Shown: positions 2,527-18,220, counted from the first letter of the stretch. The stretch: 32,000 nt of DNA from Candidatus Kuenenia stuttgartensis (GCF_900232105.1 NZ_LT934425.1:2130001-2162000), one strand, 5' to 3'. The notes: generated from the letters alone by a model not told the origin. Translations and numbers: made by a program.

Positions 2527-3359
2527 ATCAGTTTTTTTTTAATCGAAGAACGACCTGCACCAACCTTACGTATCCGTCCCGGTGTAATGTTCTTACTCGA
2601 AAGTTCCCGACGCCCCTTGGCAATTGTTTTTACATTTATGCCGGTTAGCAGTGAAAGTCTTAAATCGCCGCCATATCCCAGTTTCATTGATTCTAAACCA
2701 AGATAAAGCCGTTTCTGCCTTTCATCAAGTATAGAAAGAAATGTCTGCAGGCAATCCGTAACCGCCTCACTCCCAAAGCCGGGAATTAATACATTTTCTT
2801 CCTTACAAGCACACAACATGATTGATTGTTTACGTCTGGCGAGTTGATCCGCGCCTAACACCTTGGAGATATACAAATATTCTCCGGCAATCTGCTCACG
2901 CAAGACTCTTCCAGATACCACTAATTGAGTCAGTGCATTAAAGACTCGCACATGTACCAGCGTTTGAAGCTCCGAGGCAAAACAACCTTCCAGAGATTTA
3001 TTAATGATGGCCTCGAGAGTATATACAAGACTTCCTTGTTGAGAAAAATATATTTGATTGAAACTCCAAATGCCATATTTATTATAGCTTGCAAGTTTAT
3101 CCAGTGTATGGTATTTGCCTGCATGGGAATAACTCGCACGATGTCCGAGCGATTTTAGCTTCCTGAAAACCGTTGCTTTTGAAGTCGTTCCCAAAGCTTC
3201 TTTGATACTGTCCAGAGTTAAAACGACATCTCTGTGGAATAGTCCCAAAAGCTTGTGATGAGAATACTTAGCTAAACGCATAATGACACTATTAGGATTA
3301 ATGCGCCGGATAAAATACCGCTTAATCCTAATGCTATCACAATGGCCGGAGGGTGTCAA
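2520..3359 (-). CDS. ISAzo13-family transposase, N-terminal (HTH-like) part / orfA; an alternative start at 3278 (MRLAKY) is possible
   Basis: ORF lies inside the IS and ends IKKKLMW* immediately after an A9 run (T9 on the + strand, 2532..2540). It is contiguous with the DDE ORF in the -1 frame. Confidence 0.65.
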   Translation of the reverse strand: MTPSGHCDSIRIKRYFIRRINPNSVIMRLAKYSHHKLLGLFHRDVVLTLDSIKEALGTTSKATVFRKLKSLGHRASYSHAGKYHTLDKLASYNKYGIWSFNQIYFSQQGSLVYTLEAIINKSLEGCFASELQTLVHVRVFNALTQLVVSGRVLREQIAGEYLYISKVLGADQLARRKQSIMLCACKEENVLIPGFGSEAVTDCLQTFLSILDERQKRLYLGLESMKLGYGGDLRLSLLTGINVKTIAKGRRELSSKNITPGRIRKVGAGRSSIKKKLMW

Positions 3360-3465
3360 TGCCTATATTTACCAGTTGTAACGGCTATTACCGTGACATA
3401 CACAAAGACACTACAACGATACTATTGGCACTATACAATACCATGTTATTTGTGGTCGCTCCCTA

Positions 3466-3624
3466 AAGGAAGCAATAGAGATTGGTTTGGAGCTAAAGTA
3501 TGGCGTTGAAGGTTTAAAGCTTCTGGAACGTATCGGAAAAATAGTGGTGATAGAGAAGCTGGTGGCAATAAAAGAAGCGGTGAAAATAGCAAAGAATGTG
3601 GAAGAAATTGAAAAACTGCTCTAA
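3466..3624 (+). pseudogene. Displaced 3' end of Rpn copy 1
   Basis: Translates KEAIEIGLELKYGVEGLKLLERIGKIVVIEKLVAIKEAVKIAKNVEEIEKLL*, colinear with the last ~52 aa of copy 2 (IEAIEIGLELKYGVNGLRLLERIRK...EEIEKLL*). Confidence 0.85.
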
Positions 3625-3894
3625 CAAGAAAAACCCATATTTTATCCAGGAAATAGGGAAAGGACTAAATTCATCGAGAACTATACTCACAAAAGTCCTG
3701 AGGAATTTAATTGTCCGGGCTTCTATTTTTTTAACATCATGTATATTTTTTATACACTTTTTTCCTAACACTTTCTGCTTATGAAAAAATTTTCCTCTTT
3801 ATCGTAGAAAAATTTTAATTAATTTACAGTATTACCCTATAAAAACCTCTTTTTTTGTAACACTTTAGTCATTTGAAACTGGAAATTGTCCTCT

Positions 3895-3921
3895 GTAGTG
3901 CGACGAGGTTCGTCGCACTAC
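3895..3921. repeat. TGTAG-headed perfect hairpin (12-bp stem, 3-nt loop)
   Basis: gtagtgcgacga-ggt-tcgtcgcactac. Confidence 0.7.
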
Positions 3922-3970
3922 ATGAATTTAGTGGGCTTAGATATTTCAAGTGAGGAACGAACAGCAACCG

Positions 3971-4117
3971 TGGGAGCATTCCCGTTTTTTTGTAACCGTT
4001 AATGATGGGGTCAGGACGAAACAACCCTGACAGGGTTTCAAACCCTGTCAGGGTTAACACTACTGCAACGTTTCATTAAAACATAGCGGAAGTTACAAAA
4101 AATCAGGAATGCACCCA
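3971..4117. mobile_element. MITE (family A, GGAGCATTCCC...TTTTTTGTAAC ends), 147 bp, with a 6-bp target duplication
   Basis: TIR is tgggagcattcccgtttttttgtaac (3971..) versus gttacaaaaaatcaggaatgcaccca (..4117). The direct repeat CAACCG lies at 3965..3970 and 4118..4123. Confidence 0.7.
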
Positions 4118-4215
4118 CAACCGTTTATAGCAAATGCTCCGCTCCTACACTTTACGGCAAGTAGCGCTATTATTGGAATTTTTCAAAAGACTAAAGTGTT
4201 ACAAAAGTTTTTGTA

Positions 4216-4236
4216 GAGACGCATTGCATGCGTCTC
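4216..4236 (+). terminator. TGTAG-headed hairpin followed by a T run (terminator-like, with no obvious upstream gene)
   Basis: ttgtagagacgca-ttgca-tgcgtctc followed by ccctttttg. The 8-bp GC-rich stem plus T5 fits an intrinsic terminator. It could equally be a member of the hairpin repeat family. Confidence 0.3.
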
Positions 4237-4453
4237 CCCTTTTTGTTTATTCAGTTAAAAGTCGCCGAAGGTCTAATTTATTATCTTTTTATCACTTATC
4301 ACTTAACGCCTTCTGCCACCCCTATCCATCACCTCTTCCCTCCCCTCACGGATTCAACATTCTTTGCTTCATATCGCCGCAACCATTTTGCCAAAGATAT
4401 TGGTATTAAAGTTGCTAACCTAATCTTACGTTAAAAATTTCAACGTTTTAGTT

Positions 4454-4480
4454 GTAGAGCGAAGAGACTCTTCGCTCTAC
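4454..4480. repeat. TGTAG-headed near-perfect 27-nt palindrome
   Basis: gtagagcgaagag-a-ctcttcgctctac. Confidence 0.7.
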
Positions 4481-4685
4481 ATTGGAAGATTGTCCATGGT
4501 TTATGTTTAAAAAATTCAATCATGGTTTACCCTTAGAAAAATGAGGTGCTGGGTGTGGGTAAAAATAAAAGTAGTTGGGTTTTTGTCTTTTAAAACCCTC
4601 CCTATTTTACTGGAGATCAATCTTATTATTGCCACTGGCACACATTGCCTGTTATTTTGAAATTGCACTACCAAGAGTGATAAAT

Positions 4686-5291
4686 ATGATTAAACTAATT
4701 GGATCTATACTTGCTTCAGGGATTCAGAACCTATTCAAGCAACAGCCTGATGTCTTAAAAAAAACTACTCGCACGGGAATGACTGAATGGAACTTCGGAC
4801 GTCATCTTGCCAGCGAAATAGCAAAATATATCTTCTGGCTTAACCACGATATGGATATTACGAAACGCCACCACAAGAATCGCCGCCCTGACATCATTTT
4901 TCATAAACGAGGTAGCAATGCTTTGAACTATCTGGTAATAGAAATAAAATGCACTGACAACGTTTGTAACGATATTAAAAAAATTAAGATGGATTGGATG
5001 GGCGATGATCTGCATTATCGTTTTGGGTCCAGTATTATTGCTAATTCCAATGGGGATTTCAAGGTAACTGTTTTTTATAAAAATTCATACGAGGTGTTTT
5101 CACAATCGGCACAGACCATAGAATTACCAAAAATCTCTGAATCAGAAAAACAACACTTCATTTCCCTTGTTAATCAAATATCTTACGCAGGTCAAAACGA
5201 CCATAATGCCAACATGTCGGCGGTAGAAAGGCAGATTGATCAGAAGGTTTGCAAACTTTACGGATTAACTGAAAGGGAAGTTTTTATTTGA
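4686..5291 (+). CDS. Hypothetical protein with a PD-(D/E)XK-like motif and a Type IIG/TaqI-like C-terminal LYGLT tail
   Basis: The ATG at 4686 (MIKLIGS...) is preferred over the TTG at 4575. RPDIIFHKRG...NYLVIEIK resembles a PD...(D/E)xK nuclease core. The last residues, VERQIDQKVCKLYGLTEREVFI*, resemble the conserved extreme C-terminus of Type IIG / Eco57I-like methyltransferase-endonucleases. Confidence 0.5.
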   Translation: MIKLIGSILASGIQNLFKQQPDVLKKTTRTGMTEWNFGRHLASEIAKYIFWLNHDMDITKRHHKNRRPDIIFHKRGSNALNYLVIEIKCTDNVCNDIKKIKMDWMGDDLHYRFGSSIIANSNGDFKVTVFYKNSYEVFSQSAQTIELPKISESEKQHFISLVNQISYAGQNDHNANMSAVERQIDQKVCKLYGLTEREVFI

Positions 5292-5357
5292 TGGGTGCGC
5301 AGTTGTTTCATCCATCCTTATTTCGTAATAATAATGTTAAAATAACGGAGACACACG

Positions 5358-5972
5358 ATGGTTTCAGAGGTATTTAGCATAGCGGGAGCGATGATAGGGT
5401 CTGTTGGTGGGGCTGCATTTATAATAGTTGCTCTCAGCACGTGGCTTGGCAAAGTATGGGCCAACCGCATACTTGAGCAGGACAGGCTTAAGTATGCATC
5501 TGGACTGGAGCAAATAAAGAATAAACTTAACTCCGAGAGGGAAAGAAGCCAGTTCGTATTTTCTTTGTATTTTGAGGGGCAGTTCAAAATCTATAACGAT
5601 CTTTGGGCAGCGCTAGTGGAGCTTCAGTATGGGGTAGAACGGCTATGGAAGGAAGCCTCTCGACAGAACCTGCAAAAGTTTATCAAAGCTCTGCAGGAAG
5701 CGACGCCTCAGATCAAGAAGAGTGCGCTCCTCATAGAACCAGAGCATTACAATGAGATTATGAATGCCCTTAGAACCTTCGAGGGATACCGGGTTGGGAA
5801 AGAGCGCCTGGTGTTTGTCAGGCGCTCCGAGAATCTGGATCGAGGGCAGATACAAGAGGTTATTGATAATAACCGAGGCAACCGGGATATAATCAACAGT
5901 TTTACGGACTCCATGTTGCAAAAGATGAGGGAGCGGTTGTGCAAAGCGGGAGTAGTGTTGCCTGGAAACTAA
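5358..5972 (+). CDS. Hypothetical single-pass membrane protein with a long helical cytoplasmic or extracellular tail
   Basis: N-terminal hydrophobic segment AGAMIGSVGGAAFIIVALSTWLG. ggag lies 7 nt upstream of the ATG. Composition is markedly GC-richer than the neighbours. No family recognised. Confidence 0.55.
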   Translation: MVSEVFSIAGAMIGSVGGAAFIIVALSTWLGKVWANRILEQDRLKYASGLEQIKNKLNSERERSQFVFSLYFEGQFKIYNDLWAALVELQYGVERLWKEASRQNLQKFIKALQEATPQIKKSALLIEPEHYNEIMNALRTFEGYRVGKERLVFVRRSENLDRGQIQEVIDNNRGNRDIINSFTDSMLQKMRERLCKAGVVLPGN

Positions 5973-6129
5973 CAACAGCTTGAATCAGACAGGCTTTTTA
6001 CGCTGATGCTCCAAAACAGGAAGGTTAAGCTGCACGTTATACCTAAACGGGAAATTTGGTTTTTTAAAAATCAAAAGATAATTGTGATAGATAGAATGTC
6101 GTCCGTATATTTATTAGCTTGAAAACATA

Positions 6130-7473
6130 ATGACTAAGCAAAAATTCTATATAAGATACAAAAAGCTTCGCAAGGTCAAAAATACCAAGATTGCAAAAAT
6201 TGGCAGAGGGCAGGATTTTGAGATGCTTATTAATGATGTATTTGAAGAAGAAGATATTCTATTAAAAAGAAGCTACCATACTAGTGATAATAAATCAGAG
6301 CAGATTGATGGTGCTATAGAAATTCTAAATCGTGTCATATTATTTGAAGTCAAATGGGTTGCGGAAAATTTAGCAGCATCAGAATTATATTCATTTCTTG
6401 GGAAAATTGACAATAAACTGTATGGAACATTGGGATTGTTTATTTCAGAAAAAGAGCTATCAGATAATTTTTTGTCTGCAATCGCAAGAGGTCGCAGAAG
6501 AAACGTTTTTATCATCCATGGAAGTGACATTAATTTAATTTTCAAGAAGGATGTATCTCTAAAGGACTACCTAACCCATTGTATAAAATTATATTCTTAT
6601 GACAATTTAACCTATTATTCAGTTGCAAGATGGCTCAAAGAAAATGAAAATTTGTCAAACGCTGAAAAAACAGCCCGCGAAATAGAGAAAATAGATAAGC
6701 AGGTAGTAAAAGATACACTCAAAAAAATTCTTGACGTCAATTTAATGCCAAAACATGATATTTATTTAGTTATTGCTGATCTTGGTGAAGCAGAGAAGAT
6801 CAAAGTTGTTAATTATTTATTGAGAGAATATCCAACATATTACAATGCTTACGCAAAATCAGTTTTCGCAAAAAGAGGTAAGTTTGAAAATATAGAAAAC
6901 TCATTGGAAATTTTGCTAGATTCAGGAGAAATTACAAAAAAAATATATTTAAAATACTACCGTCTTTATATAGGAAATCCTGTTAGTTCATATCTCAGAG
7001 ATTTCATGTGGGAAAAATTCAAAGATTACTATAAAAAGTTAAAGAGTGTTAATAAATTAGAATTTGAAAAGGCATTATTAAAGAATTTCGAATCTATATA
7101 TGGATCTTGGTTAGATGAAAATAAATTAACAAATGTAATTGAATATATTTGGTCATCGATGAGTGAAAATACAAAAGCTGAGTTTATCAATTATTACATT
7201 GAAATATATTTTAGTAATCGCAAAGACCATTACGAACAAAAGCAATTTGCTTCCAAAATTGTAACAAACTCTCAAAATAGGAAATATGTAAAAAATTGGA
7301 TTGAAAAGAAAATTAATGAAGAAATAAAATCCAGTAAACTTACTCAAGACGATGTTGAATCTGAAGTCAAATATTTTAATAGATATTATTCTAAGGCACA
7401 GACAATCCTTTCATTCAATGACAGTGATTGGAGGGCTTATTTAACTAAAAAATATAAGGAAAATATAAAATAA
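6130..7473 (+). CDS. Mrr-cat-like restriction-endonuclease-fold protein with a ~300-aa unassigned helical C-terminal domain
   Basis: GQDFEMLINDVF...EQIDGAIE...VILFEVKW...GTLGLFIS...VFIIHGSDI follows the Mrr catalytic-domain pattern (G..FE, D-G-iD, E-x-K, G-fis). Extremely AT-rich. Confidence 0.6.
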   Translation: MTKQKFYIRYKKLRKVKNTKIAKIGRGQDFEMLINDVFEEEDILLKRSYHTSDNKSEQIDGAIEILNRVILFEVKWVAENLAASELYSFLGKIDNKLYGTLGLFISEKELSDNFLSAIARGRRRNVFIIHGSDINLIFKKDVSLKDYLTHCIKLYSYDNLTYYSVARWLKENENLSNAEKTAREIEKIDKQVVKDTLKKILDVNLMPKHDIYLVIADLGEAEKIKVVNYLLREYPTYYNAYAKSVFAKRGKFENIENSLEILLDSGEITKKIYLKYYRLYIGNPVSSYLRDFMWEKFKDYYKKLKSVNKLEFEKALLKNFESIYGSWLDENKLTNVIEYIWSSMSENTKAEFINYYIEIYFSNRKDHYEQKQFASKIVTNSQNRKYVKNWIEKKINEEIKSSKLTQDDVESEVKYFNRYYSKAQTILSFNDSDWRAYLTKKYKENIK

Positions 7474-7874
7474 GCTAACAATTGCATGCTCCAGATGGCA
7501 AGAACATCTACGGCTCTGACGGGCAATTTGCTGGCGGCTTCTGTGAGTATCACATTATTCCCCACATGAATAATACGAAAATAACTGTTACCACCATAGG
7601 CCATATGCCAGCAGAGTTTGATAAGCGAAAAATTACAAACTGGAAGCAGATATATTTTTTGTAGTGGGTGGAATGGAGAGTTACTCTCTTGCAAAAGACT
7701 CAGACGAACATGGCTGGGCATGTAGCGAAGCCAGTTTAGATGAACTTTTACCAGAAGAATTCAGAGGAATTTTTTTTATTGCTTTCGAAAGTAGCATATT
7801 GTTGTATGAAACTGAATATCTATTATCAGATTTAATTGGGAAAAAAACATATATATACTTTGCAATACACAAAT

Positions 7875-8375
7875 ATGACTAAAGATTTTGCCAAACCGTC
7901 AAAAACTATAAAAAAGTGGGAATCGTACGAAGAGGTAGCTACCTACTTCCTCAATGAGCTAGCAAGCAAATTTGGCCTGAGTCATGTAGAAGGAAAACAG
8001 AAGATTCAAGGTCAGCGATCCGGAACCGAATGGGAAATAGACGCCAAAGGCATTCGGCAAGGAAATAAAGGTTTTGTAATAATTGAATGCCGTCATTGGA
8101 ATTCGAAGCAGCCACAAGAGAAACTCGGCAGTTTGGCATACAGTATATTTGATACAGGTGCGGAGGGTGGAATCCTGGTAAGCCTTATGGGAATGCAAGA
8201 AGGTGCTAAAAAGATTGCGTGTGCAGAAAATATTATACCTGTCCAGATGGCTTGTGATAACACGCCTTTCAACTTCATTTTGCAATTTCTAAACAGCGTC
8301 ATGGTTGGAGCACGTGAAACTATATCGGTGGCAGAAAGCATCGTTGTCGTTAAAAAGAGCAGTGATAATACATGA
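7875..8375 (+). CDS. Small Mrr-cat-like restriction-endonuclease-fold protein
   Basis: The ATG at 7875 (MTKDFAK) is preferred over the TTG at 7836. YEEVATYFLNELA...GTEWEIDAKG...GFVIIECRHW...GAEGGILVSLMGMQEGAKKIA matches the stand-alone restriction endonuclease (Mrr_cat) layout. Confidence 0.6.
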   Translation: MTKDFAKPSKTIKKWESYEEVATYFLNELASKFGLSHVEGKQKIQGQRSGTEWEIDAKGIRQGNKGFVIIECRHWNSKQPQEKLGSLAYSIFDTGAEGGILVSLMGMQEGAKKIACAENIIPVQMACDNTPFNFILQFLNSVMVGARETISVAESIVVVKKSSDNT

Positions 8376-8555
8376 ATCCGTTCACTTTAGGAGTTTTTGA
8401 CCTGGCAAAAAATGAGTTAGCGGATAAGCCTAAGTGATTTTTGCTAAATGGGGAAAGCAAATTGCTAATTTTCAGGTACGAGTTATTCAAACTCTGCATC
8501 AAACAATATTTGGTCAAACCTTTTATTATTCAATATCCCTATACAAAAAGACTAC

Positions 8556-8564
8556 TGTTATAAT
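8556..8564 (+). promoter_or_regulatory. Candidate extended -10 promoter element upstream of the glycan operon
   Basis: tgttataat (TGnTATAAT) lies ~57 nt upstream of the 8621 start. No good -35 was seen and the sigma-factor consensus of this organism is unknown. Confidence 0.2.
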
Positions 8565-8620
8565 TGAATTATGAAGATTTTATCCCCCTTGATTAATACT
8601 CAAAAATAGAAATATAGTAG

Positions 8621-8957
8621 ATGAAAAACAATACCGTACTAATAACAGGTGCTGATGGTTTTATAGGTTCGCATCTAACGGAGGCTTTGGTAAAAGAAGG
8701 TGCAAACATAAAGGCATTGAGTTATTATAATTCGTTTAACAATTGGGGATGGCTTGAAAGTATAGATTGCCAAAAGGATATAGAGATTCTTACGGGAGAT
8801 GTAAGAGACCATAATTTCTGTAATCGTATTACGAAAAATGTCAATATAGTATTCCATTTAGCAGCATTAGTAGCAATACCCTATTCATACATCGCTCCAG
8901 ATAGCTATGTTGACACAAACATTAAAGGAACGCTTAATATTTGCAAGGCAGCGCTAG
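8621..8957 (+). pseudogene. NDP-sugar 4,6-dehydratase (extended SDR, LegB/PseB-class), 5' part, interrupted by IS1634-family element
   Basis: VLITGADGFIGSHL Rossmann motif and YYNSFNNWGWLE block. The ORF terminates 3 nt into the IS (8960..8962). Confidence 0.8.
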
Positions 8958-10961
8958 CGTGAGTTTATCACAAAATAAGGCATGAAGCAACGTAACATAA
9001 ATACAGTCAATGCGTTAAGCACAACATCAATTGTATACACTGAGTCCTTGAAGTTTCAGCCGATGTTTGTGGAAATCCATAATGCCTAACGCATTCATCA
9101 ACAGAGATTCCTTGTCGGACATTTCTTCCAATTTGTAGGTAGCCTTAACTCTCCCTCTGGCCTTTGTTTCTTCAAGCATAGCAGAAAGCCTTATATTATT
9201 AAGGGTGTCTAACAGGGTATCTAACGTTCCACTAAATTGTGCGTGCGCTTTTGCCTGATACCACACAATCGCCGCCATTAGGTATCCGAGGACGCAAATA
9301 AAAAAATGCACCCTGATTTTCTGATCCGTCCAGTGAAATTGCGGTTTTAAAGCAAGGTGATAGGGGTTCTTGAGATTTCTAAAGGCATGTTCAATTTTTG
9401 ATTGCCCATAGTAGGCTTTTATAATGTCCGCGGTATCCCAATCGTGATGGTCTGTCATAAGAATCCTGAACCCCAGTTCCCCTTCTATTTCTTCGAGCTT
9501 TTTCTGGTCGATTGAAAAATTCAATTGAAACTTGCCTTCAGATACCTCTTTTAACGACCAATCGATAACATCCTTCGCAAATTGACATTTCACTACACTT
9601 CTTATCGTATCCTCCAGACCCTCTTTGTCCCGCATCTTTCCCTTTGGATTACACAGATGCTGCTGTAAGAGCTTTAACTGATGTTCTGCCTTTTCCAGAG
9701 ACTGAGACATTCCCCTTAATTGCCCAACCTTTAATTTCTCGGAAATAAATACGACAACGGTTCTTTCCTGCCCCCAAATAACCCGTTTGTCATGGTACAC
9801 CTGTATCTTACTGCCGTCAACGTCATATTCCCTGAAATTACACATGGCATCCCCTACCAACTGCTTGTGATGATACGGTGTAAGCGCTCCAACGTAATGC
9901 AATGCCAATCTCTCTACAATAGCCATATTGTCCATGGAATTGTTTCCACGATCAAAAACAATAGTGTGCTTTTTGCTGTCGAAACCTAATCCGGTCATCC
10001 TGTCTTTTATCGTCTCAAGAACCGCGCTGAACACCTTTGCATCCGCCATGTTCCCCTGATAGGTATGGTGAAACAACGGTATCATGTCGTTACGTGTAAC
10101 GACCATCGCCAACCCGACCTGCCTGAGATCGTATCGCTTTTGTTTGTTTTTCCCCCGCCGGGCAATAGTGCATCGCAGATTAGTTGTGTCGATATACGTG
10201 AAAAAATTGGTTGTATCAAAAAACAGTGTGTCGCTTTGAAGGTTGTATGTTTTAAATGTCTTTTCAATTAATTCGCGCTCGATTTCTGCAATGGATTCTT
10301 CAGGAAGTGCATCCATCAAATCCCAGAAATGCTGACTGTCTATTTTACTCAAGCTGTGTCTGAGTAAGTATTCGGCAGTAGTCGTCTTTGCCCAATCCCA
10401 CCATCCTCTTTTGCTGGTAGGCACACACACTCTCCCCACGGCACCCAACAAGAGGGTACTTCCGGCGGTCAGATTATTTCGAACAGGTTTTTTAGCACAA
10501 TACTGCCGTGGCGACTTTATATATTTATTAATCACGGAAGGGACGTCCAGGGCATTGGCCACACTTAGCAATGCGGCTACCGCGCCATGTGAATAAGATT
10601 TGAGCCGTAATTTTTCGGTAAGACCTTGCAGTTGTTTTAATAAATCGTCTGCCTTGCCAAGATAGGCCAGGACGATGGGCCTGGGCTTGCCGTTAACGCG
10701 CCGCGATTCGACAATATACCAATATTTATAACCTCTGGAGTTTTTAGATTGAATGGTAGCCATGGCTATTAGTTGTTAGTGTATACGTAATAGATTAATA
10801 CTCCGTGTATAATAGTATATACAGGCATATAATGCAATATAAATATAGTATTATTCAGTGTATACATAATTTTTTAGACAAAAAAAGTCGCAACCCGATA
10901 CAAATCATTGGATTGCAACTTGATGTCTTTGTCTTACACCTTATTTCGTGATAAACTCACG
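8958..10961 (-). mobile_element. IS1634-family insertion sequence (~2.0 kb)
   Basis: Terminal inverted repeats are cGTGAGTTTATCACaAAATAAGG (8958..) and CCTTATTTcGTGATAAACTCACg (..10961). The target duplication is CTAG/GCTAG (8953..8957 and 10961..10965, boundary ambiguous by 1 nt). Subterminal tgtatacactga inverted repeats lie at 9032..9043 and 10855..10866. Confidence 0.85.
9027..10763 (-). CDS. IS1634-family (IS4-related DDE) transposase
   Basis: 578-aa ORF. The N-terminus SRGYKYWYIVESRRVNGKPRPIVLAYLG is the typical IS1634-family opening. It fills the element between the TIRs. Confidence 0.8.
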   Translation of the reverse strand: MATIQSKNSRGYKYWYIVESRRVNGKPRPIVLAYLGKADDLLKQLQGLTEKLRLKSYSHGAVAALLSVANALDVPSVINKYIKSPRQYCAKKPVRNNLTAGSTLLLGAVGRVCVPTSKRGWWDWAKTTTAEYLLRHSLSKIDSQHFWDLMDALPEESIAEIERELIEKTFKTYNLQSDTLFFDTTNFFTYIDTTNLRCTIARRGKNKQKRYDLRQVGLAMVVTRNDMIPLFHHTYQGNMADAKVFSAVLETIKDRMTGLGFDSKKHTIVFDRGNNSMDNMAIVERLALHYVGALTPYHHKQLVGDAMCNFREYDVDGSKIQVYHDKRVIWGQERTVVVFISEKLKVGQLRGMSQSLEKAEHQLKLLQQHLCNPKGKMRDKEGLEDTIRSVVKCQFAKDVIDWSLKEVSEGKFQLNFSIDQKKLEEIEGELGFRILMTDHHDWDTADIIKAYYGQSKIEHAFRNLKNPYHLALKPQFHWTDQKIRVHFFICVLGYLMAAIVWYQAKAHAQFSGTLDTLLDTLNNIRLSAMLEETKARGRVKATYKLEEMSDKESLLMNALGIMDFHKHRLKLQGLSVYN

Positions 10962-11615
10962 CTAGATAATGGTTGTAAGAGATTGATTCATACTTCAACA
11001 AGTGAGGTTTATGGTACGGCACAATACATTCCTATAGATGAAAAACATCCCTTACAACCGCAGTCACCTTATAGTGCAAGTAAAATTGGGGCGGATGCTA
11101 TTGCCATGAGTTTTTACCATTCTTTTAAATTACCAACAGTCATTGCAAGGCCTTTTAATACTTATGGGCCTCGACAATCGGCCAGAGCAGTAATACCAAC
11201 AATCATCTCTCAGATTGCCAGTGGTAAAAAAGAGATTAAGCTTGGGGATGTATCTCCAACAAGAGATATGAATTACGTAGAAGACACCTGTCACGGGTTA
11301 ATTACTCTCTCTAAATGTGATATGGCAGTTGGAGAAATATTTAACATTGGCTCTAATAATGAAACTTCTATATATGAGATTTTTAACCTGATAAAAGAGA
11401 TTATGGCAAGCGACGCACATTTAGTAACTGATAAGGAAAGGTTGAGACCGGAAACATCTGAAGTATTGAGGTTGTGTTGTGATAATTCCAAACTAAAGAA
11501 GCATACCGGATTTTCACCTCAGTATGCTCTTAAGGAAGGGCTTGAAAAGACTATTAACTGGTTTATCAATCCAAAAAACCTATCAAAATATAAAACGGAT
11601 ATCTACAATGTCTAA
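10962..11615 (+). pseudogene. NDP-sugar 4,6-dehydratase, 3' part
   Basis: LIHTSTSEVYG...SPYSASK (the YxxxK catalytic motif as YSASK)...RPFNTYGPRQ. Joining 8957 to 10966 gives an uninterrupted frame ...NICKAALDNGCKRLIHTSTSEVYG... Confidence 0.8.
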
Positions 11616-12330
11616 ACGAGCAATAATACTCGCAGGTGGCAAGGGGAAAAGATTATTGCCTTATACAATTGTTCTTCCAAAGCCATTAATGCCAATAGGA
11701 GAATACCCTATTCTTGAGGTTGTTGTACGACAGCTTGCATTTTACGGTTTCAGGCACATTACTATGGCCGTAAATCATCAAGCGGAAATTATTCAGGCAT
11801 TTTTCGGAAAAGGGAAAAAATGGAAAGTTAAAATCGATTATTCTTTTGAAGACAAACCTCTCAGCACAATTGCACCGTTAAAGTTAATAAGCAATTTGCC
11901 AGAGGACTTTCTGGTCATGAATGGAGACATACTAACGGACTTAAATTATTCAGATTTTTATCAGTTTCACATCAACAAAAAAAGTATCTTTTTAATTTCT
12001 TCTTATAAGCGAGAATTGAAAAGTGAGTTTGGAGTATTAGAATTTGATAAAAATGCAAAATTGAAGGAGTTTAAGGAAAAACCGGTTGTCCGTTACAACG
12101 TCAGCATGGGTATATATATGGCAAACAGAACCATACTTGAATACATTCCTAATAACAAACCTTACGGTTTTGATAATCTCATGCTCGATTTAATAAAGGC
12201 AGGAAAGCCTGCTACTGTAAAACCGTTCCATGGCTGCTGGCTTGACATTGGAAGGCCAGATGATTATATACAGGCTATTGATGAATTTGAAAAAAATGGA
12301 TTTTTGTTTCTTAAGGAATTAAAAAAATAA
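11608..12330 (+). CDS. Sugar-phosphate nucleotidyltransferase
   Basis: The ATG at 11608 overlaps the upstream stop (ATGTCTAA). MSKRAIILAGGKGKRLLPYT is the G-x-G-T/K-R-L signature of NTP-transferases. Confidence 0.8.
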   Translation: MSKRAIILAGGKGKRLLPYTIVLPKPLMPIGEYPILEVVVRQLAFYGFRHITMAVNHQAEIIQAFFGKGKKWKVKIDYSFEDKPLSTIAPLKLISNLPEDFLVMNGDILTDLNYSDFYQFHINKKSIFLISSYKRELKSEFGVLEFDKNAKLKEFKEKPVVRYNVSMGIYMANRTILEYIPNNKPYGFDNLMLDLIKAGKPATVKPFHGCWLDIGRPDDYIQAIDEFEKNGFLFLKELKK

Positions 12331-13475
12331 TGTGGAAAATACCTTTATCTGACATTAATTTCGACCAAAAAGAGGTAGAAGCAGTCCAAAATGTGATTTA
12401 TTCGGGTTGGCTTACAATGGGAGAGGTTACAAAAGATTTCGAAGCCCGCTTTGCCAGGTATATAGGTGTAGAACATGCATTTGCTGTTTCATCCTGTACC
12501 TCCGCGCTGCACCTTGCTGCTCTTGCTCTTGATATTGGAGAAGGCGATGAGGTAGTATGTCCTTCTCTAACATTCGTAGCTGCGCCGAACTCTATTATAT
12601 ACACCCGGGGAAAACCTGTTTTTGCAGATATAACTAGCGTAACAAACCTAAATATCTCACCTGAAGATATTGAAAAAAAAATTACAGCAAAAACAAAAGC
12701 CATTCAGATTATGCATTATGCCGGAATACCCTGCAATATGGAAAGTATCACCGACCTTGCCAGAAAGCGTGGTCTTCCGGTTATTGAAGATTGTGCTCAC
12801 TCTCCTGGATCGGAGTATAAAGGGAAAAGATGTGGCTCTATAGGAGACATAGGATGTTTTAGCTTCTTCTCCAACAAAAATATGACAACCGGAGAAGGGG
12901 GAATGATTACCACAAATGATGAAAATATTGCTAAAAAAATCAGAACATTACGCTCTCATGGTATGACTACCCTCACCCTTGATAGGCATAAAGGGCATGC
13001 CTTTAGTTATGACGTTACTGCCCTTGGATTTAACTATCGCCTCGATGAGATCCATTCTGCCCTTGGCATTGTGCAGCTTGAAAAACTACAAAAAAGTAAT
13101 GAAAGACGCCTGACATTAGCGACAAAATACCAACAAGCTTTATCTGAAATCCAAGGACTTTCAGTAATTTCCGGGAATGGGATTTCTGTATCATCTAATC
13201 ATATTCTCCCTGTTCTGTTGCCAGAAGAAATAGACCGTGCTAAATTTATGGAATATATGAAACAAAATGGCATTCAGACCAGCATCCACTACCCACCGGC
13301 ACACCTCTTTGATTTCTACCGTCGTATGTATGGATACAAAGAAGGAATGCTGCCACTCACGGAAGAAGTTTCTAAAAGAGAAGTTACATTGCCTCTATAT
13401 CCGTCTATGAATGAAGATAGTGTCAGCATTGTTTGTGATGCTGTTCGTGAATATTTTAAAAAGGAATTAATATAA
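12330..13475 (+). CDS. DegT/DnrJ/EryC1/StrS-family PLP-dependent sugar aminotransferase (PseC/LegC-class)
   Basis: FE..FA.Y.G..HA.AVSSCTSALHLA, SFFSNKNMTTGEGG (Lys-containing PLP site) and RSHG motifs. The start overlaps the upstream stop by 1 nt (TAATG). Confidence 0.85.
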   Translation: MWKIPLSDINFDQKEVEAVQNVIYSGWLTMGEVTKDFEARFARYIGVEHAFAVSSCTSALHLAALALDIGEGDEVVCPSLTFVAAPNSIIYTRGKPVFADITSVTNLNISPEDIEKKITAKTKAIQIMHYAGIPCNMESITDLARKRGLPVIEDCAHSPGSEYKGKRCGSIGDIGCFSFFSNKNMTTGEGGMITTNDENIAKKIRTLRSHGMTTLTLDRHKGHAFSYDVTALGFNYRLDEIHSALGIVQLEKLQKSNERRLTLATKYQQALSEIQGLSVISGNGISVSSNHILPVLLPEEIDRAKFMEYMKQNGIQTSIHYPPAHLFDFYRRMYGYKEGMLPLTEEVSKREVTLPLYPSMNEDSVSIVCDAVREYFKKELI

Positions 13476-14101
13476 TGAATGTGTTGGCTGTCGGCGCTCA
13501 TTTTGATGACATTGAACTTGGATGCAGCGGGACGTTGATAAAACATGTTAAAAATGGTGATAAGGTTATCATGCTAGTAGTTACAGATTCATCTTATAGC
13601 AATCCCAATGGTGAATTAATACGGAATTCTGAAACCGCTTATCAGGAAGGTCAGAAAGCAGCGAACATCATTGGCGCCGAACTGATTTGTTTAAATTATA
13701 AGACCTTCCTGGTTCCTTTCAGTGAAAAGTTAACAAAGGAAATTACTCGTATTATTGAGGATAAGAATATAGATATCATGTATTCCCCATGGATACACGA
13801 CCTCCACAGAGATCACCAGTATGTAGGCAAAAATGCACTTATGGCGGGACGACATGTAAAAAGATTTCTTATGTATCGGCCCAATTATTATGACACAGAC
13901 CAGATGTTCAGGGGAAATGTATATTCTGATATTTCTAATTTCATGGAAAACAAAAGTGAAGTTATTAAAGCACACAAGTCAGAACTTGAAAGGGTAAGGA
14001 ACAGCTGGCTAGACTTTTTCGAAAACCAGAACCAAAATGACGGACAAAAGATTGGGGTAGAGTGCGCGGAGTGCTTTGAAGTTGTTCGATATCTTTTGTA
14101 G
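13475..14101 (+). CDS. PIG-L/LmbE-family deacetylase
   Basis: VLAVGAHFDDIELGCSGTL and HRDHQ motifs. 1-nt overlap with the upstream gene. Confidence 0.75.
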   Translation: MNVLAVGAHFDDIELGCSGTLIKHVKNGDKVIMLVVTDSSYSNPNGELIRNSETAYQEGQKAANIIGAELICLNYKTFLVPFSEKLTKEITRIIEDKNIDIMYSPWIHDLHRDHQYVGKNALMAGRHVKRFLMYRPNYYDTDQMFRGNVYSDISNFMENKSEVIKAHKSELERVRNSWLDFFENQNQNDGQKIGVECAECFEVVRYLL

Positions 14102-14106
14102 GGAAT

Positions 14107-14775
14107 ATGGGTAAGATTGTTACAATTCATCAGCCTGATTTTTTACCATGGCGAGGCTTTTTTGATCGCTGGGGAAAAAGTGATTTGTATATTGTTCTTG
14201 ATGACGTGCAATTTCTCCGAAGAGGTTGGCACCACAGAGATAAAATCAAAACAAAAGATGGCGTAAAATGGTTGACTGTACCTGTTAAAAAAAAGGGCAA
14301 ATATGATCAACTTATACTGGAGGTAGAGATAGATTACAGCACAGATTGGCAAGCCAAGCACTTGAAAACTATTGAAGTTAACTATAAGAAAGCTCCGAAC
14401 TTTGAATATTATTTTGATAAATTGAAATCAATATACGTAAAAAAACACGATCTTCTAATAGATTTAAATATGGATTTATTGATATTTGTTGCGGAAGAAC
14501 TTGGGATAGATACTCCCGCTGTTTTTGCTTCTAGCTATAATGTGAATTCAAATTCAACTGAAAGGCTAATTGAATTGGTTAAGGCAGTAGGAGGTAATGA
14601 ATATTTAACAGGGACTGGTTCCAAGGGGTATCTCAATGAAAAACTTTTTCAAAGAAAAGGTATAAGGGTCGTCTGGCAAAATTACGAGGAGACTTTTTAT
14701 AAACAGTTGCATGAAGATTTTGTTCCACACCTTTCAGGGTTAGACTATCTAATGATGAAATGCAAAAATGACTGA
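14107..14775 (+). CDS. WbqC-family protein (function unknown, polysaccharide loci)
   Basis: IHQPDFLPWRGFFDRW...LDDVQF... resembles the WbqC N-terminal signature. Confidence 0.65.
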   Translation: MGKIVTIHQPDFLPWRGFFDRWGKSDLYIVLDDVQFLRRGWHHRDKIKTKDGVKWLTVPVKKKGKYDQLILEVEIDYSTDWQAKHLKTIEVNYKKAPNFEYYFDKLKSIYVKKHDLLIDLNMDLLIFVAEELGIDTPAVFASSYNVNSNSTERLIELVKAVGGNEYLTGTGSKGYLNEKLFQRKGIRVVWQNYEETFYKQLHEDFVPHLSGLDYLMMKCKND

Positions 14776-15436
14776 CATGAAATGCTATAGTTCAAATAGA
14801 TTTAAAGTTTCCATTTTGGTGGATGACCCCAGTTCATGGATAGTCCCATACGTAGAGAGTTTAAGTGTAAGAATTGGTGAGCAAAACGACGTATCTCTTT
14901 ATTTTAATGCATATGATATAGTGGAAGGTGATTTTTTATTTCTGCTTGGATGCACTTCTATTATACCCAAACAAGTTTTAAATAAGAATAAACATAATTT
15001 GGTTGTGCATGAAAGCGATCTTCCAGAAGGAAGAGGATGGTCTCCGGTAAGCTGGCAAGTATTGGAAGGGAAAAACAGGATACCTATCGTATTATTTGAA
15101 GCTGAAGAAAAACTAGATTCAGGCAGAATTTATTTAAAAGACTATATAGAACTTGATGGCACAGAACTTCTACCAGAAATCAAAAAAAAGCAGGGAGATA
15201 AAACTATTGATTTAGTGCTGACCTTCCTAAATCAATGGCCTGACCTGCAGCCTTCGGGACAGATAGGAATGCCCTCTTATTACGAAAAGAGAACCACAAA
15301 GCATGATGAACTCGATATAAGTAAAAGCATCATCCAAAACTTTAATCATCTTCGTATTATTGATAATGAAAAACATCCTGCATGGTTTCAACTAAATGGA
15401 CACAAATATATATTAAAAATATATAAAACAGACTAA
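14768..15436 (+). CDS. Formyltransferase-family protein (Fmt/PurN-like N-domain)
   Basis: NLVVHESDLPEGRGWSPVSWQVLEG matches the H-x-S-L-LP-x-x-RG formyltransferase catalytic loop. 8-nt overlap with the upstream gene. Confidence 0.7.
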   Translation: MTDMKCYSSNRFKVSILVDDPSSWIVPYVESLSVRIGEQNDVSLYFNAYDIVEGDFLFLLGCTSIIPKQVLNKNKHNLVVHESDLPEGRGWSPVSWQVLEGKNRIPIVLFEAEEKLDSGRIYLKDYIELDGTELLPEIKKKQGDKTIDLVLTFLNQWPDLQPSGQIGMPSYYEKRTTKHDELDISKSIIQNFNHLRIIDNEKHPAWFQLNGHKYILKIYKTD

Positions 15437-15451
15437 TATTCAAGGAGTTTA

Positions 15452-16486
15452 TTGGTGAAAACAATTTCTATCGGAAAATTCATAATAGGCTTAAATGAGC
15501 CTTGTCTCATACTCGCTGAACTCGGTGCTATGCAGGAAGACCTTAATGGGATGAAGAAACTAATTAAGGTTTCAAAAGAAGCCGGTGCCGATGCTGTAAA
15601 GATTCAAACTTACAGGGCAGAAACTATTGCCCATCCATCGGCAGAATTCGAATTTGAAGATGGCTCCAAGATGTTTCAAATGGAGTTCTTTAAAAAACTT
15701 GAAATTTCTCAAGACGACCATAAAGAGCTATTTGATTATGCAAGAGAGCTTGGGATTGCTATTTTTTCGACACCCAGTTACTATGATGATGTTGACTTTC
15801 TTGAAGAGTTGGGTGTGCCAGCTTACAAGACGGGTTCTGATGACTTAACTAATCGCCCTTTCCTTGAATATATCGCACGAAAGGGTAAGCCTATGATTGT
15901 ATCTACAGGTATGTCAACTCTGGCAGAGGTCGAAGAAGCGGTAGAAACAATTTTAAAGACTGGAAATGATCAGTTGGTTCTTCTTCACTGTACGACATCT
16001 TATCCGCCTGCTCCTGAATTTGCCAATCTTAATGTTATGAACACCCTCCGCTCTGCCTTTGACGTTCCCATTGGATATTCAGACCATGTTGCGGGTATTT
16101 TTTCTTCAATACTTGCTGCCAGTATGGGTGCCTCTGTTATTGAAAAGCATATAACCCTGGATCGAAAATCGAAAAGACCTGACTGTGAGGTATCGATAGA
16201 ACCATCAGAGCTAAAGGAGATGGTTGAACAAATTCGTTTAATACCTATTCTTCAGGGAAGCTCGATAAAGAAAATATATCCTTCTGAGAAGAAGTGGCGC
16301 AGGAATGGAAGAAAAAGCCTTGTAGCAAATCGTAATTTAAAATGTGGCGATGTTATTGGAAAAGAAGACCTGAAAATAATCAGGCCTGGAACGGGAATAC
16401 CTCCCAGATACATGGATTTCATCGTTGGCAAGACCTTAAAAAAGGACATTAGTGAAAATGAAATAATTCCTCATGATGCCTTTTAA
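15452..16486 (+). CDS. Nonulosonic acid synthase (NeuB/PseI/LegI/SpsE-like, with C-terminal SAF domain)
   Basis: CLILAELGAMQEDLNGMKKLI...GADAVKIQTY...YKTGSDDLTN...GYSDHV...IEKHITLDR plus a C-terminal SAF-like segment. aaggag lies upstream; the start may be the GTG at 15455 rather than the TTG at 15452. Confidence 0.85.
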   Translation: MVKTISIGKFIIGLNEPCLILAELGAMQEDLNGMKKLIKVSKEAGADAVKIQTYRAETIAHPSAEFEFEDGSKMFQMEFFKKLEISQDDHKELFDYARELGIAIFSTPSYYDDVDFLEELGVPAYKTGSDDLTNRPFLEYIARKGKPMIVSTGMSTLAEVEEAVETILKTGNDQLVLLHCTTSYPPAPEFANLNVMNTLRSAFDVPIGYSDHVAGIFSSILAASMGASVIEKHITLDRKSKRPDCEVSIEPSELKEMVEQIRLIPILQGSSIKKIYPSEKKWRRNGRKSLVANRNLKCGDVIGKEDLKIIRPGTGIPPRYMDFIVGKTLKKDISENEIIPHDAF

Positions 16487-17201
16487 GCCAGATTTCAATA
16501 CAGAAGTTGTAGTAATACTCCAAGCCCGCACAGGTTCTACGAGGCTACCAAATAAGGTTTTGAGATGTTTGGCGGGTAGACCAATGTTGTCGCATTGTAT
16601 TCAAAGGCTTAAGAGAATTGGTGATGGATATCACGTAATCGTAGCAACCTCTACCCTGAATAGAGATTATACTTTGGAGAAATTGGCAATTAAAGAAGGA
16701 GTATTATGTTACAGGGGGGGTGAGAAAGATGTTCTTGATCGTTACTACCATGCAGCGAAATCTGCAGGGGCTAAATTTGTGATCAGGGCAACTGGTGACA
16801 ATCCGTTGGTATGCCCTGAAGAGGCAAAAAGAGTTGTTGAATGCATAACAAGTCAAAAAGTGGATTATGTAACCGGGATAGAAGAAGTAGAAGGTTTAAA
16901 ACTACCGACAGGTGTCGGCGTAGAGGCGTTCACTTTTAAAGCGCTTGAACGATCATGGTTAGAAGGTAACAAAGAGCATCACCGTGAACATGTTAACGAA
17001 TATATTCTTGAGAATCCTGGAATTTTTAGCATAGTCAGGCTCTCCTGTATGCCCCAAAATAGTTGCCCCGAACTCAGTCTGACAATTGATACTAATGATG
17101 ATTTTGAATTTATTGAGGAGATGTTAAGCGGTTTTATTAAGCCTGCAACCGAGATAACTACATCCGAGATTATTAAATGGTGGAGAAAAAGAATAAACTG
17201 A
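16473..17201 (+). CDS. Cytidylyltransferase (SpsF/FlmC-type, putative CMP-nonulosonate synthetase)
   Basis: VVILQARTGSTRLPNKVL..L.GRPML is the SpsF-type CTP-transferase opening. 14-nt overlap with the synthase gene. Confidence 0.75.
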   Translation: MMPFKPDFNTEVVVILQARTGSTRLPNKVLRCLAGRPMLSHCIQRLKRIGDGYHVIVATSTLNRDYTLEKLAIKEGVLCYRGGEKDVLDRYYHAAKSAGAKFVIRATGDNPLVCPEEAKRVVECITSQKVDYVTGIEEVEGLKLPTGVGVEAFTFKALERSWLEGNKEHHREHVNEYILENPGIFSIVRLSCMPQNSCPELSLTIDTNDDFEFIEEMLSGFIKPATEITTSEIIKWWRKRIN

Positions 17202-18220
17202 TAGTTTTTCGCCTTGATGCTGGTCATGAAAGGGGAATGGGGCATCTGTACCGTATGATGACCCTGGCAGATGAATTTAGAAGAAAAGGGCATGACTGTC
17301 TGTTTGTATTAAAAAGAAATGATGTGGCGTCAAGAATTCTTGACAGCGTAAAGTTTAGATGTCTATCTTATCCAGTACATCTTACAGAAGAAGATATAGT
17401 AGAAAAATACTTCAAAGACGAGTTGGAACCTGATCTTTGGATATTTGATATTCTCTCCACTGACGAGACGTTGGTTGTACGGACTAAATCCATGGGGGTA
17501 CCTGTTGTATCATTTGATGATTTAAAGGGTGGTTTGCTCCATGCGGATCTTGTTGTGAATGCCATTGCAGGTTGCTGGGATGAGGAAAGTAAGGTCTCAG
17601 GGCGTATTCCACATGTATTAAGCGGGCCTCGATACGCAATTATTACGTCTGATATAATTAATCTGAAATACAAGAAAAAAATGCCTCAAGAAGACATTAG
17701 GATTGGGGTAACAATGGGAGGAAGTGATACACATGGCGCTACAGTAAAGATTGGACAAGTATTATCCCGTTTTGATGAAAAAGATATGTATGTGAATTTT
17801 TTTCTCGGACCACATTTCATGCATGACATTGAGATGGATGAGATGCTAGCAGCATTTTCACATCCATTTACCGTGAAAAAAGGGGTTTCGGATTTGTATG
17901 TAGAGTTGATTAATAATAATTTGGTCATATGCGGAGGCGGGCAAACTATGTTTGAGTTGTGCTCAATGGGAATGCCTGTTATGGCTCTGGCAAATGAGGT
18001 TCATGAAGAAAAGACCATTAGATATTTTGAGCGCAATGGAGCATGCATCGATATAGGTTCCGTTCATAAGGAACTTGATGATGAGAAGATGTGTAAGTTT
18101 ATTGATGAGATCAAGTACGATTTGGATAAACTGAACCGGTTGGCAGTGAATGCTGTCCAATTAGTTGACGGTAAGGGAACCAAGAGATGTTACAGTGCGT
18201 GTGCAGTCTTAATCAACTAA
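17177..18220 (+). CDS. PseG/SpsG-like nucleotide-sugar hydrolase (GT-B fold)
   Basis: LIVFRLDAGHERGMGHLYRMMTLADEF mirrors the PseG opening (R-x-DA-x-x-x-G-x-GH-x-x-R-x-x-x-LA). C-terminal GGGQTMFELCSMGMP is a GT-B-type motif. Confidence 0.7.
   Translation: MVEKKNKLIVFRLDAGHERGMGHLYRMMTLADEFRRKGHDCLFVLKRNDVASRILDSVKFRCLSYPVHLTEEDIVEKYFKDELEPDLWIFDILSTDETLVVRTKSMGVPVVSFDDLKGGLLHADLVVNAIAGCWDEESKVSGRIPHVLSGPRYAIITSDIINLKYKKKMPQEDIRIGVTMGGSDTHGATVKIGQVLSRFDEKDMYVNFFLGPHFMHDIEMDEMLAAFSHPFTVKKGVSDLYVELINNNLVICGGGQTMFELCSMGMPVMALANEVHEEKTIRYFERNGACIDIGSVHKELDDEKMCKFIDEIKYDLDKLNRLAVNAVQLVDGKGTKRCYSACAVLIN

Follow-up and report, generated by a model that had tools for sequence, protein, structure and literature searches.

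Four genes between mobile-element debris and a glycan operon

We examined a 32,000-nucleotide (nt) stretch of DNA from Candidatus Kuenenia stuttgartensis (GCF_900232105.1, NZ_LT934425.1:2130001-2162000), hereafter called the window, and within it a block of four genes, open reading frames (ORFs) 1 to 4, which an initial sequence-only reading had taken for an accretion site of nuclease-type immunity genes. The gene of main interest is ORF3, a predicted single-protein nuclease. The ORF listing agrees with that reading in placing four same-strand ORFs, all intact and on the + strand, between debris of miniature inverted-repeat transposable elements (MITEs) and insertion sequences (ISs) and a glycan operon (Table 1). 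On its left side the block is bordered by a YhgA/Rpn-type gene, an ISAzo13-family transposase and MITE-like repeats; on its right, an IS-split gene for a NAD-dependent epimerase/dehydratase precedes the glycan operon. The gaps between the ORFs, given earlier as 66, 157 and about 400 bp, measure 66, 157 and 401 nt. The strong swings in composition are real as well: GC content is 37.3 % in ORF1, 47.3 % in ORF2, 28.3 % in ORF3 and 41.9 % in ORF4, a span of 28-47 % in a genome (4.41 Mb) of 41.1 %, and GC at third codon positions is 54 % in ORF2 and 24 % in ORF3.

Table 1. Features in and around the four-gene block, in window coordinates
Feature	Position	Strand	Evidence or remark
MITE-like short repeats, left edge of block	4380..4685		33 copies of parts in the genome; parts also found in most relatives
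ORF1, 201 amino acids (aa) from ATG, predicted restriction-endonuclease-fold core then two helices	4686..5291	+	
In-frame type IIG 'tail' segment of ORF1 (...ERQIDQKVCKLYGLTEREVFI*)	5143..5291	+	PADLOC, blastp
ORF2, 204 aa, N-terminal transmembrane helix (residues 8-26) and helical domain	5358..5972	+	Hydropathy
Segment with ORF3, gap and ORF4, swapped for an unrelated 168-aa gene in a same-genus genome	6016..8601		blastn synteny
ORF3, 447 aa	6130..7473	+	
ORF3 N-terminal domain, residues 1-164, predicted Mrr_cat-type PD-(D/E)XK nuclease	6130..6621	+	
ORF3 C-terminal domain, residues 165-447, predicted all-alpha helical-repeat domain	6622..7473	+	
Unique 401-nt spacer upstream of ORF4, no recognisable gene	7474..7874		Single copy in genome
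ORF4, 166 aa, small stand-alone Mrr_cat-like protein, D56 and E71-x-R73, invariant K58	7875..8375	+	
5' part of NAD-dependent epimerase/dehydratase gene, IS-split, right syntenic anchor	8621..8962	+	Pfam

No methyltransferase, helicase or NTPase partner was found in or beside the block, as had been noted from the sequence. Screening with PADLOC-DB v2.0.0 (5027 defence models) yielded two partial matches in ORF1, mere noise for ORF2 and no match for ORF3 or ORF4. If a defence island is defined operationally, by known defence genes clustering together, the block is not one: its neighbours in the window are transposases, MITEs and the glycan operon. Promoter and terminator scans of the block gave operon signals at the level of shuffled sequence, no flanking repeat was found that would mark the four genes as one mobile unit, and the window holds no tRNA or Rfam family. 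The 401-nt gap was considered as a decayed gene and rejected as such: its sequence occurs once in the genome, matches no Rfam or tRNA entry and contains no remnant of the genes that neighbour ORF4 homologues. The left edge has two short MITE-like units, at ~4420-4490 and ~4544-4615, with dozens of copies in the genome and others in most genomes of the family.

A strain-variable spot filled by unrelated genes

Comparison with a same-genus genome (G003, contig C72) shows the same spot filled with different genes, in line with the proposed accretion site. By blastn synteny, the glycan operon aligns at 95 % and the 5' part of the epimerase gene, uninterrupted in G003, matches at 91 %. ORF2 is the sole block gene common to both genomes (89 % nucleotide match). 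An unrelated 168-aa gene stands in G003 where the window has ORF3, the 401-nt spacer and ORF4 (6016-8601), and beyond ORF2 a different 214-aa gene takes the place of ORF1. This replacement of ORF3 and ORF4 by a different gene in a genome of the same genus indicates a real accretion spot, and the comparison supports a strain-variable accretion site at the head of the glycan operon.

Two further differences from G003 were noted. Its ORF2 homologue (L012 1545-2183) is frameshifted, with the N- and C-terminal halves in different frames. The IS that splits the epimerase gene in the window (8963-10962) is absent from G003, where the gene is intact, so that its insertion is recent and strain-specific.

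The four genes belong to separate, widely scattered families of 'hypothetical' proteins. A DNA search of 30 relatives found neither ORF3 nor ORF4, and matched ORF1 at 75-77 % in two other genera of the family; a profile search of 148 other genomes of the phylum found the ORF4 family in none and the ORF2 family in two. We also fetched about 150 foreign loci carrying a homologue of any of the four genes. No locus contained a second of the four families, save one that has an ORF2 homologue and, 3 kb away on the other strand, a 32 %-identical ORF4-like frame. This lack of co-occurrence suggests that the four genes are independent acquisitions and do not form one system.

ORF3 combines a predicted Mrr_cat nuclease domain with a new helical-repeat domain

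ORF3 had been described as an Mrr-cat-like N-terminal domain followed by ~300 aa of unassigned sequence, and this description holds: the catalytic residues E31, D60 and E73-x-K75 are intact and the remainder is unmatched. The full protein has no sequence match in Pfam, NCBIfam, PADLOC, PHROG or PDB, and six diverse members of its family, one of them embedded in a restriction-modification (R-M) operon, are likewise without a match in PADLOC-DB v2. The Mrr_cat profile PF04471 gives no match at E<=1 on the window's ORF3; it is found among precomputed annotations on five ORF3 homologues, and on a related architecture it reaches 22 bits, the cut-off being 21.

The ORF3 family comprises 69 clusters at 90 % identity, nearly all of 435-455 aa and all unnamed, from Bacteroidota, Planctomycetota, Spirochaetota and Pseudomonadota. 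An alignment of 38 sequences shows two very unequal halves. Residues 20-160 are strongly conserved, with R26, G27, F30, Q58, D60, E73, K75 and W76 invariant and E31 nearly so, while only E330, N331 and Q370 are kept in the remaining ~280 residues. Mean pairwise identity is 55.5 % in the N-terminal domain and 22.9 % in the C-terminal domain.

An AlphaFold2 model built from the family alignment is confident (mean predicted local distance difference test score, pLDDT, 91.3; predicted template modelling score 0.82). It consists of an alpha-beta-beta-beta-alpha-beta nuclease core with intact catalytic residues, followed by 17 helices at pLDDT >90. The residues follow the Mrr_cat motif order of a helix Glu, a beta-2 Asp and a beta-3 (D/E/Q)-x-K. 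Foldseek matches the core to Cdn1, Can2, the small subunit of R.BspD6I, PspGI and NucS with a probability of ~1 and E-values of 0.04-0.8. On the basis of the model and the conserved motif, we conclude that the N-terminal domain is a predicted, intact Mrr_cat nuclease domain. The model likewise leads us to conclude that the C-terminal part is a putative new alpha-repeat domain; the fold search returned low-probability solenoid matches of the HEAT, ARM and TOG kind, and no significant fold or sequence match. Solved structures sought as relatives by sequence profile gave chance matches only. The isoelectric point (pI) of the C-terminal domain has a median of 6.1 across the family (range 4.8-9.1), a value that does not suggest a constitutive DNA-binding surface.

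Genomic contexts of the ORF3 family

To describe the surroundings of ORF3 homologues we compared 31 non-redundant loci by all-against-all BLAST of the neighbouring genes. The homologues are always stand-alone genes, and no conserved partner was found in the 31 loci outside an R-M sub-clade and near-identical contigs. ORF2 was considered as a partner and rejected: two loci (L003 and L019) have a 215-aa gene upstream of the homologue, and these two genes are related neither to ORF2 nor to each other. The sole recurrent neighbours are type I R-M subunits. The arrangement hsdM-hsdS-[ORF3-like]-hsdR, its hsd genes confirmed by Pfam and tblastn, is seen in 7 of the 31 loci (Flavobacteriaceae, Prolixibacteraceae, Salinivirgaceae and unclassified Bacteroidota), and the stop codon of the ORF3-like gene overlaps the start of hsdR. 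One locus (L052 6231-7921) has two extra genes, of 231 and 332 aa, between hsdS and the ORF3-like gene.

The slot between hsdS and hsdR is that of PrrC in EcoprrI (PMC1484252), the TgvAB defence genes are embedded in the type I R-M cluster of Vibrio VPI-2 (PMC11411939), and genes embedded in type I R-M operons have been taken as defence genes under the term 'guilt-by-embedding' (bioRxiv 10.1101/2024.01.29.577857). The window's own ORF3 is not inside an R-M operon. The family tree has two clades separated by a long branch, with the window gene in clade B and all R-M-embedded members in a single sub-clade of clade A; the R-M link thus speaks for the family and not for this copy.

Other homologues have different neighbours. 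Some come directly after TraG, the coupling protein, in conjugative elements. One homologue is flanked by a CoiA-nuclease gene and a DUF4011/MTES_1575 helicase; another has a Prok-E2/ThiF/BubE cluster and a CoiA-like nuclease on one side and an integrase on the other. A gene encoding a CoiA-domain protein has been validated in defence in E. coli (PMC9519451). In a prophage-like contig (L010 2572-8938), a 55 %-identical homologue and a 221-aa gene lie in opposite orientation between the genes for the lambda-type portal and the terminase (GpA), which is a typical moron position. Taken together with the lack of any entry for the family in PADLOC, Pfam, NCBIfam and PDB, the contexts agree with the initial choice of ORF3 as the best candidate in the block for an undescribed single-gene system, and they support an undescribed family of predicted single-protein nucleases.

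The nuclease module is also reused in other architectures. It forms the C-terminal half of proteins of 304-317 aa that carry a different, ~165-aa helical domain at the N-terminus, found in Bacteroidota, a metagenome-assembled genome of Rhizobiaceae and one IMG/VR viral contig (L060-L068, L070, L071, L078; e.g. L062 7497-8429). It occurs N-terminal to yet another domain (341 aa, L064) and alone (~160-170 aa, L069 and L072). Relatives of the N-terminal domain only are annotated 'restriction endonuclease' on 691 plasmids, 497 of them from Klebsiella and most of them conjugative. At the sole such locus inspected, on the Klebsiella variicola plasmid NZ_CP050682.1 (L164, 31106-32089), a 327-aa relative directly follows an 869-aa AAA/SbcC-like ATPase, and the two possibly form a two-gene system. 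A viral origin was considered for ORF1, ORF3 and ORF4 and rejected: the IMG/VR patterns returned no member of the ORF1 or ORF4 family and one N-domain-only relative of ORF3.

ORF1, a putative cassette with a type IIG tail

ORF1 had been read as a PD-(D/E)XK nuclease. The motif side of that reading stands and the fold side is weak. The family (81 clusters, 195-230 aa; Planctomycetota, Desulfuromonadota, Chlorobium, Bacillus and others) is highly conserved over the first ~130 residues, with E34, N36, H40, D55, D57, K60, R67-P68-D69, E86 and K88 invariant, so that the pattern E34, P68-D69, E86-x-K88 is kept throughout. The AlphaFold2 model has a pLDDT of 87.8, and the best Foldseek matches (3ijm, Hjc, HindIII, BsaXI and DrdV) are non-significant, with E-values of 0.1-0.3 and probabilities of 0.75 or less. 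Pfam has no match for ORF1 or for three of its homologues; one source labels the homologues 'Type I restriction enzyme R protein N-terminal domain'.

Of the two partial PADLOC matches in ORF1, one is to PD-Lambda-3_A (E 5e-5). The other concerns the last ~50-70 residues, which are a type IIG C-terminal tail: they match REase_MTase_IIG over positions 1166-1240 of 1247 (E 3e-7) and share 47-48 % identity with the C-termini of two type IIG ORFs in the same genome (blastp 1e-11 and 5e-10). ORF1 is itself no type IIG enzyme, as the match is confined to the tail, methyltransferase motifs are absent and the protein has 201 aa. In Geobacter, the start of the ORF1 homologue overlaps the end of an Eco57I/TaqI_C methylase, which itself follows a PLD-SNF2 helicase, and a ThsB-TIR gene and McrBC lie downstream. 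In the genome G012, a trio resembling Hma, made up of a helicase, a 1156-aa methylase and an AAA_13 ATPase, is followed by one small gene and then by the ORF1 homologue; in G017 the homologue lies 4.5 kb from a homologous methylase, in a segment flanked by two inverted IS copies. Bacillus homologues are without the tail and are found among helicase, phosphoribosyltransferase and reverse-transcriptase genes, some of them retron-like. From these comparisons ORF1 is better read as a putative cassette from type IIG/Hma methylase loci. A search for further tail copies or Hma remnants in the window found none; the tail of ORF1 is the only copy in 3300-8700.

The tail itself (...QIDxxVYKLYGLTxEEIAIVEGKK*) recurs as orphan short frames in anammox genomes. 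The most extended case is G012, where nine copies lie on one strand within 13 kb (L023 = G012:C5:130000-148000, positions 5084-17910), the first of them being the methylase's own end. Each copy stands at the 3' end of a gene cassette, and the next gene begins just past the stop codon of the tail; the cassettes hold the AAA_13 ATPase, the ORF1 homologue (in frame), an M78 peptidase with DUF4411, a 274-aa gene with a radical SAM gene, and others. At the DNA level, similarity extends over roughly the final 100 nt of the coding tail, as far as the stop codon and no further. There are 13 copies in G001, 8 in G003 and 6 in G017, and the genome of the window has a mini-array after an Hma-like locus at 2.623-2.635 Mb (G000:C1:2630464-2634618). 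In the rest of the phylum the tail is mostly found as a single copy within an ORF of at least 770 aa, apart from a few orphan pairs.

An attractive, hypothetical account of these arrays would be serial integration at the 3' end of the methylase. Circular cassettes would integrate there repeatedly by recombination, in a layout that would be integron-like except that the coding tail would serve as the attachment site. A 187-aa gene lies between the helicase and the methylase of the genome's own Hma-like locus (G000:C1:2626271-2626834), and the same gene is directly upstream of the methylase in G017 (L024 654-1214). Its N-terminus (...HIYNRGINGE...) we take to be RAYT/IS200-like; as the recombinase behind the tail arrays it is a candidate and no more. 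A search of the accessible literature for the tail motif returned nothing relevant, and the preprint on embedded genes offers no mechanism beyond a 'genomic sink' (bioRxiv 10.1101/2024.01.29.577857).

ORF4 and ORF2

ORF4 belongs to a family of 1143 clusters, 150-190 aa long, whose members are 55-70 % identical across distant phyla, an unusually high identity. The annotated ATG at 7875 (166 aa) fits the homologues better than a TTG at 7836 (179 aa). The earlier assignment of ORF4 as PD-(D/E)XK/Mrr-like survives in part. Pfam Mrr_cat (PF04471) matches just above its cut-off (22.4 bits against 21, E 1.4e-4, profile positions 31-104 of 115), but E71-C72-R73 stands where (D/E/Q)-x-K is expected, the strand being assigned by motif order and Pfam coordinates from sequence alone. 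The deviation is a property of the family: E71-C72-R73 is present in 27 of 27 aligned sequences (alignment A5), and K58, two residues after D56, is invariant. Many members add a C-terminal CxxC...CxxC zinc ribbon, which the window copy does not have.

The view of ORF1, ORF3 and ORF4 as three PD-(D/E)XK nucleases of one class is not supported. Their mutual relatedness is undetectable (hhalign probabilities of 0.1 and 0.9 out of 100), ORF4 is without the catalytic lysine, and ORF1 is better explained by its probable type IIG/Hma origin.

For ORF2, hydropathy agrees with the single N-terminal transmembrane helix that had been read from the sequence. The family is large, with 1227 representatives at E<=1e-3 in a 50 %-clustered library, and has the conserved motifs QF..YN.LW, IE..HY and GK in the predicted helical domain. 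ORF2 has no Pfam or PADLOC family and a weak match to a PHROG of unknown function, and 33 members of its family are also without a PADLOC match. Neighbours of its homologues include SIR2, type III and MmeI-type methylases, reverse transcriptases and AbiEii, as well as Pycsar-type TIR, HerA and MTES_1575 genes, among ordinary genes.

Weighing the explanations

We favour, at a probability of roughly 0.55, an accretion spot of four separately acquired, autonomous genes of conflict or defence type that do not make up one system, with ORF3 as a single-protein nuclease. ORF3 would then be a good candidate for a new one-gene anti-phage system, as judged from its sequence and that of its relatives. 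The data themselves establish how the block is laid out, which family each gene belongs to, what is conserved, the catalytic motifs included, where the homologues are found and how the spot varies between strains; we infer the defence function of ORF3, the sensing or regulatory role of its C-terminal domain and DNA as its target. In the mechanism we propose, the effector would be the intact Mrr-type PD-(D/E)XK domain, fused to a fast-evolving alpha-helical repeat domain that would keep the nuclease in check and release or direct it upon an invader trigger. The trigger may be a phage or plasmid protein; in the R-M-embedded clade it may be that the R-M complex is lost or inhibited, as with PrrC. 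The activated enzyme would cut DNA. The other three genes would act on their own: ORF1 as a restriction-fold nuclease cassette of Hma-like helicase/type IIG-methylase loci, carrying the methylase tail and orphaned here; ORF4 as a small, highly conserved and horizontally mobile Mrr-fold protein with an E-x-R variant site; and ORF2 as a membrane-anchored helical protein.

Several observations weigh against this explanation. The fold matches of the nuclease domains of both ORF3 and ORF1 all have weak E-values. A number of ORF3 homologues are found among ordinary genes (SusC/D, FecR, ECF sigma). The R-M-embedded members are just 28-30 % identical to the window's ORF3, across the long branch, and the hsdM and hsdR genes of the embedded loci are mutually homologous, so that the embedding may be one event that spread with the cassette. 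No full-length ORF3 homologue was found in PLSDB plasmids (none at a query cover of at least 80 %, the best at 43 %), and GenBank phages gave no ORF3 match. For the remaining genes, both sampled ORF4 contexts (n=2) are not defence-like, the ORF4 E-x-R site may be non-catalytic, and the neighbours of ORF2 are heterogeneous, with nothing common across 35 metagenomic loci.

The mode of action of ORF3 could be different. It had also been proposed to be modification-dependent, for which we found no specific support. As a type IV enzyme, ORF3 would use its repeat domain to read modified DNA and target the nuclease, with no abortive or sensor step. Mrr_cat (PF04471) is the catalytic domain of Mrr-type type IV enzymes, related architectures give weak matches to the PADLOC model mREase_IV (E 4e-4), such systems are known embedded in type I R-M operons (TgvAB), and the ORF3 gene stands alone with no methylase. 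We nevertheless consider this unlikely. The C-terminal domain is unlike any known reader of modified bases, the order of the domains is the reverse of that in Mrr, and a domain that diverges as fast as this one and is not consistently basic fits a protein-sensing or regulatory role better than that of a DNA reader. A more far-reaching proposal keeps ORF3 as a new single-protein Mrr/alpha-solenoid immune nuclease and adds that ORF1 is a displaced unit of an undescribed cassette-capture mechanism working with tail-bounded cassettes of diverse defence-type genes; taken as a whole, it is tentative, and we would not yet bet on it.

It is also conceivable that none of the four is an immunity gene. 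Mobile DNA may have brought them in as passengers that serve some other function, or this genome may be in the course of losing them; the function could be that of a nuclease in DNA repair or recombination, the maintenance and competition of plasmids or integrative and conjugative elements (ICEs) or, for ORF2, a task in the envelope. The surroundings rich in IS and MITE, with an IS having split the adjacent epimerase gene, would suit passengers, as would the frameshifted ORF2 copy of G003, the ordinary contexts of some ORF3 homologues and of both sampled ORF4 homologues, the missing canonical lysine of ORF4 and the lack of PADLOC matches for ORF2, ORF3 and ORF4. Yet the four ORFs are full length and keep every residue that is invariant in their families, the contexts of ORF3 and ORF1 are dominated by R-M, Hma-like, ICE-cargo and prophage-moron positions, and a fast-evolving accessory domain together with modular reuse of the nuclease is typical of conflict genes; we think it improbable that the whole block is of this kind. 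The idea that all four genes, or ORF2 with ORF3, or ORF3 with ORF4, form one cooperating system is by far the least probable and is largely refuted. Same strand and close spacing would speak for it, as would the comparison with G003, in which ORF3 and ORF4 are either both there or both missing, but no two of the families occur together in the foreign loci apart from the one distant opposite-strand case, GC content differs by up to 19 points, two of the gaps are 157 and 401 nt long, and ORF3 homologues have no conserved neighbour. Four separately acquired genes remain the explanation that we prefer.

Whichever function is assigned to them, the block is a case of cleanly bounded gene turnover at one chromosomal spot between strains of a genetically unmanipulable organism. 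The tail-bounded arrays, if confirmed, would suggest how genes become 'embedded' in Hma/type IIG loci, a point that the embedding paper left open.

Comparison with known systems

Type IV enzymes of the Mrr/PF04471 type are among the closest known systems. The N-terminal domain of ORF3 and ORF4 have the predicted Mrr_cat fold and motif order, and both genes stand alone with no methylase. In ORF3, however, the catalytic domain is N-terminal and a novel alpha-repeat domain replaces the Mrr_N winged helix, whereas ORF4 is without a reader domain and carries E-x-R. Shedu (SduA) resembles ORF3 in pairing a PD-(D/E)XK effector with a variable accessory domain and in reusing the nuclease module with different ones; its nuclease clade is DUF4263 and not Mrr_cat, and in PDB the one match to Shedu does not rise above chance (E 0.2). 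Lamassu LmuA with an Mrr effector shares the plan of an N-terminal nuclease effector and a C-terminal helical domain, and the N-domain relatives on Klebsiella plasmids follow a large AAA/SMC-like ATPase. ORF3 was nonetheless rejected as an LmuA: there is no PADLOC LmuA match, the Foldseek probability is 0.11, and no LmuB or LmuC lies near any full-length homologue.

ORF1 can be compared with the Hma (helicase-methylase-ATPase) systems and the cassettes embedded in them or next to them (Payne et al. 2024, preprint), as its homologues directly follow a type IIG-like methylase or an ATPase and ORF1 itself carries the C-terminal tail of the methylase. It differs in that Hma genes are absent from the window; the ORF1 family is not among the HEC systems named in the accessible part of that source.

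The R-M-embedded sub-clade of ORF3 invites comparison with PrrC/EcoprrI and TgvAB, since it occupies the exact hsdS-X-hsdR slot and is translationally coupled to hsdR. Unlike PrrC, ORF3 has neither an ABC-ATPase nor an anticodon-nuclease domain, and the window copy is outside an R-M operon. An ORF3-like protein silenced by the R-M complex is only an analogy with PrrC; if true, the R-M-wired sub-clade would offer a second, non-ATPase model for the PrrC question of an R-M-silenced back-up nuclease.

Another close likeness is a single-gene defence system, validated in E. coli, in which an N-terminal nuclease of the Mrr family is joined to a 7-bladed beta-propeller (Vassallo et al. 2022, PMC9519451). 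As in that system, one polypeptide would join an N-terminal Mrr-type nuclease to a C-terminal repeat domain with an unknown ligand, and both are found on mobile elements and in defence islands. The repeat domain of ORF3 is predicted to be an alpha-solenoid instead of a beta-propeller, and no sequence relationship between the two was detected in PADLOC. Should ORF3 protect against phages or plasmids, a widespread family would join the single-protein nuclease immune systems, and a new alpha-solenoid accessory domain would be found paired with the classic Mrr effector.

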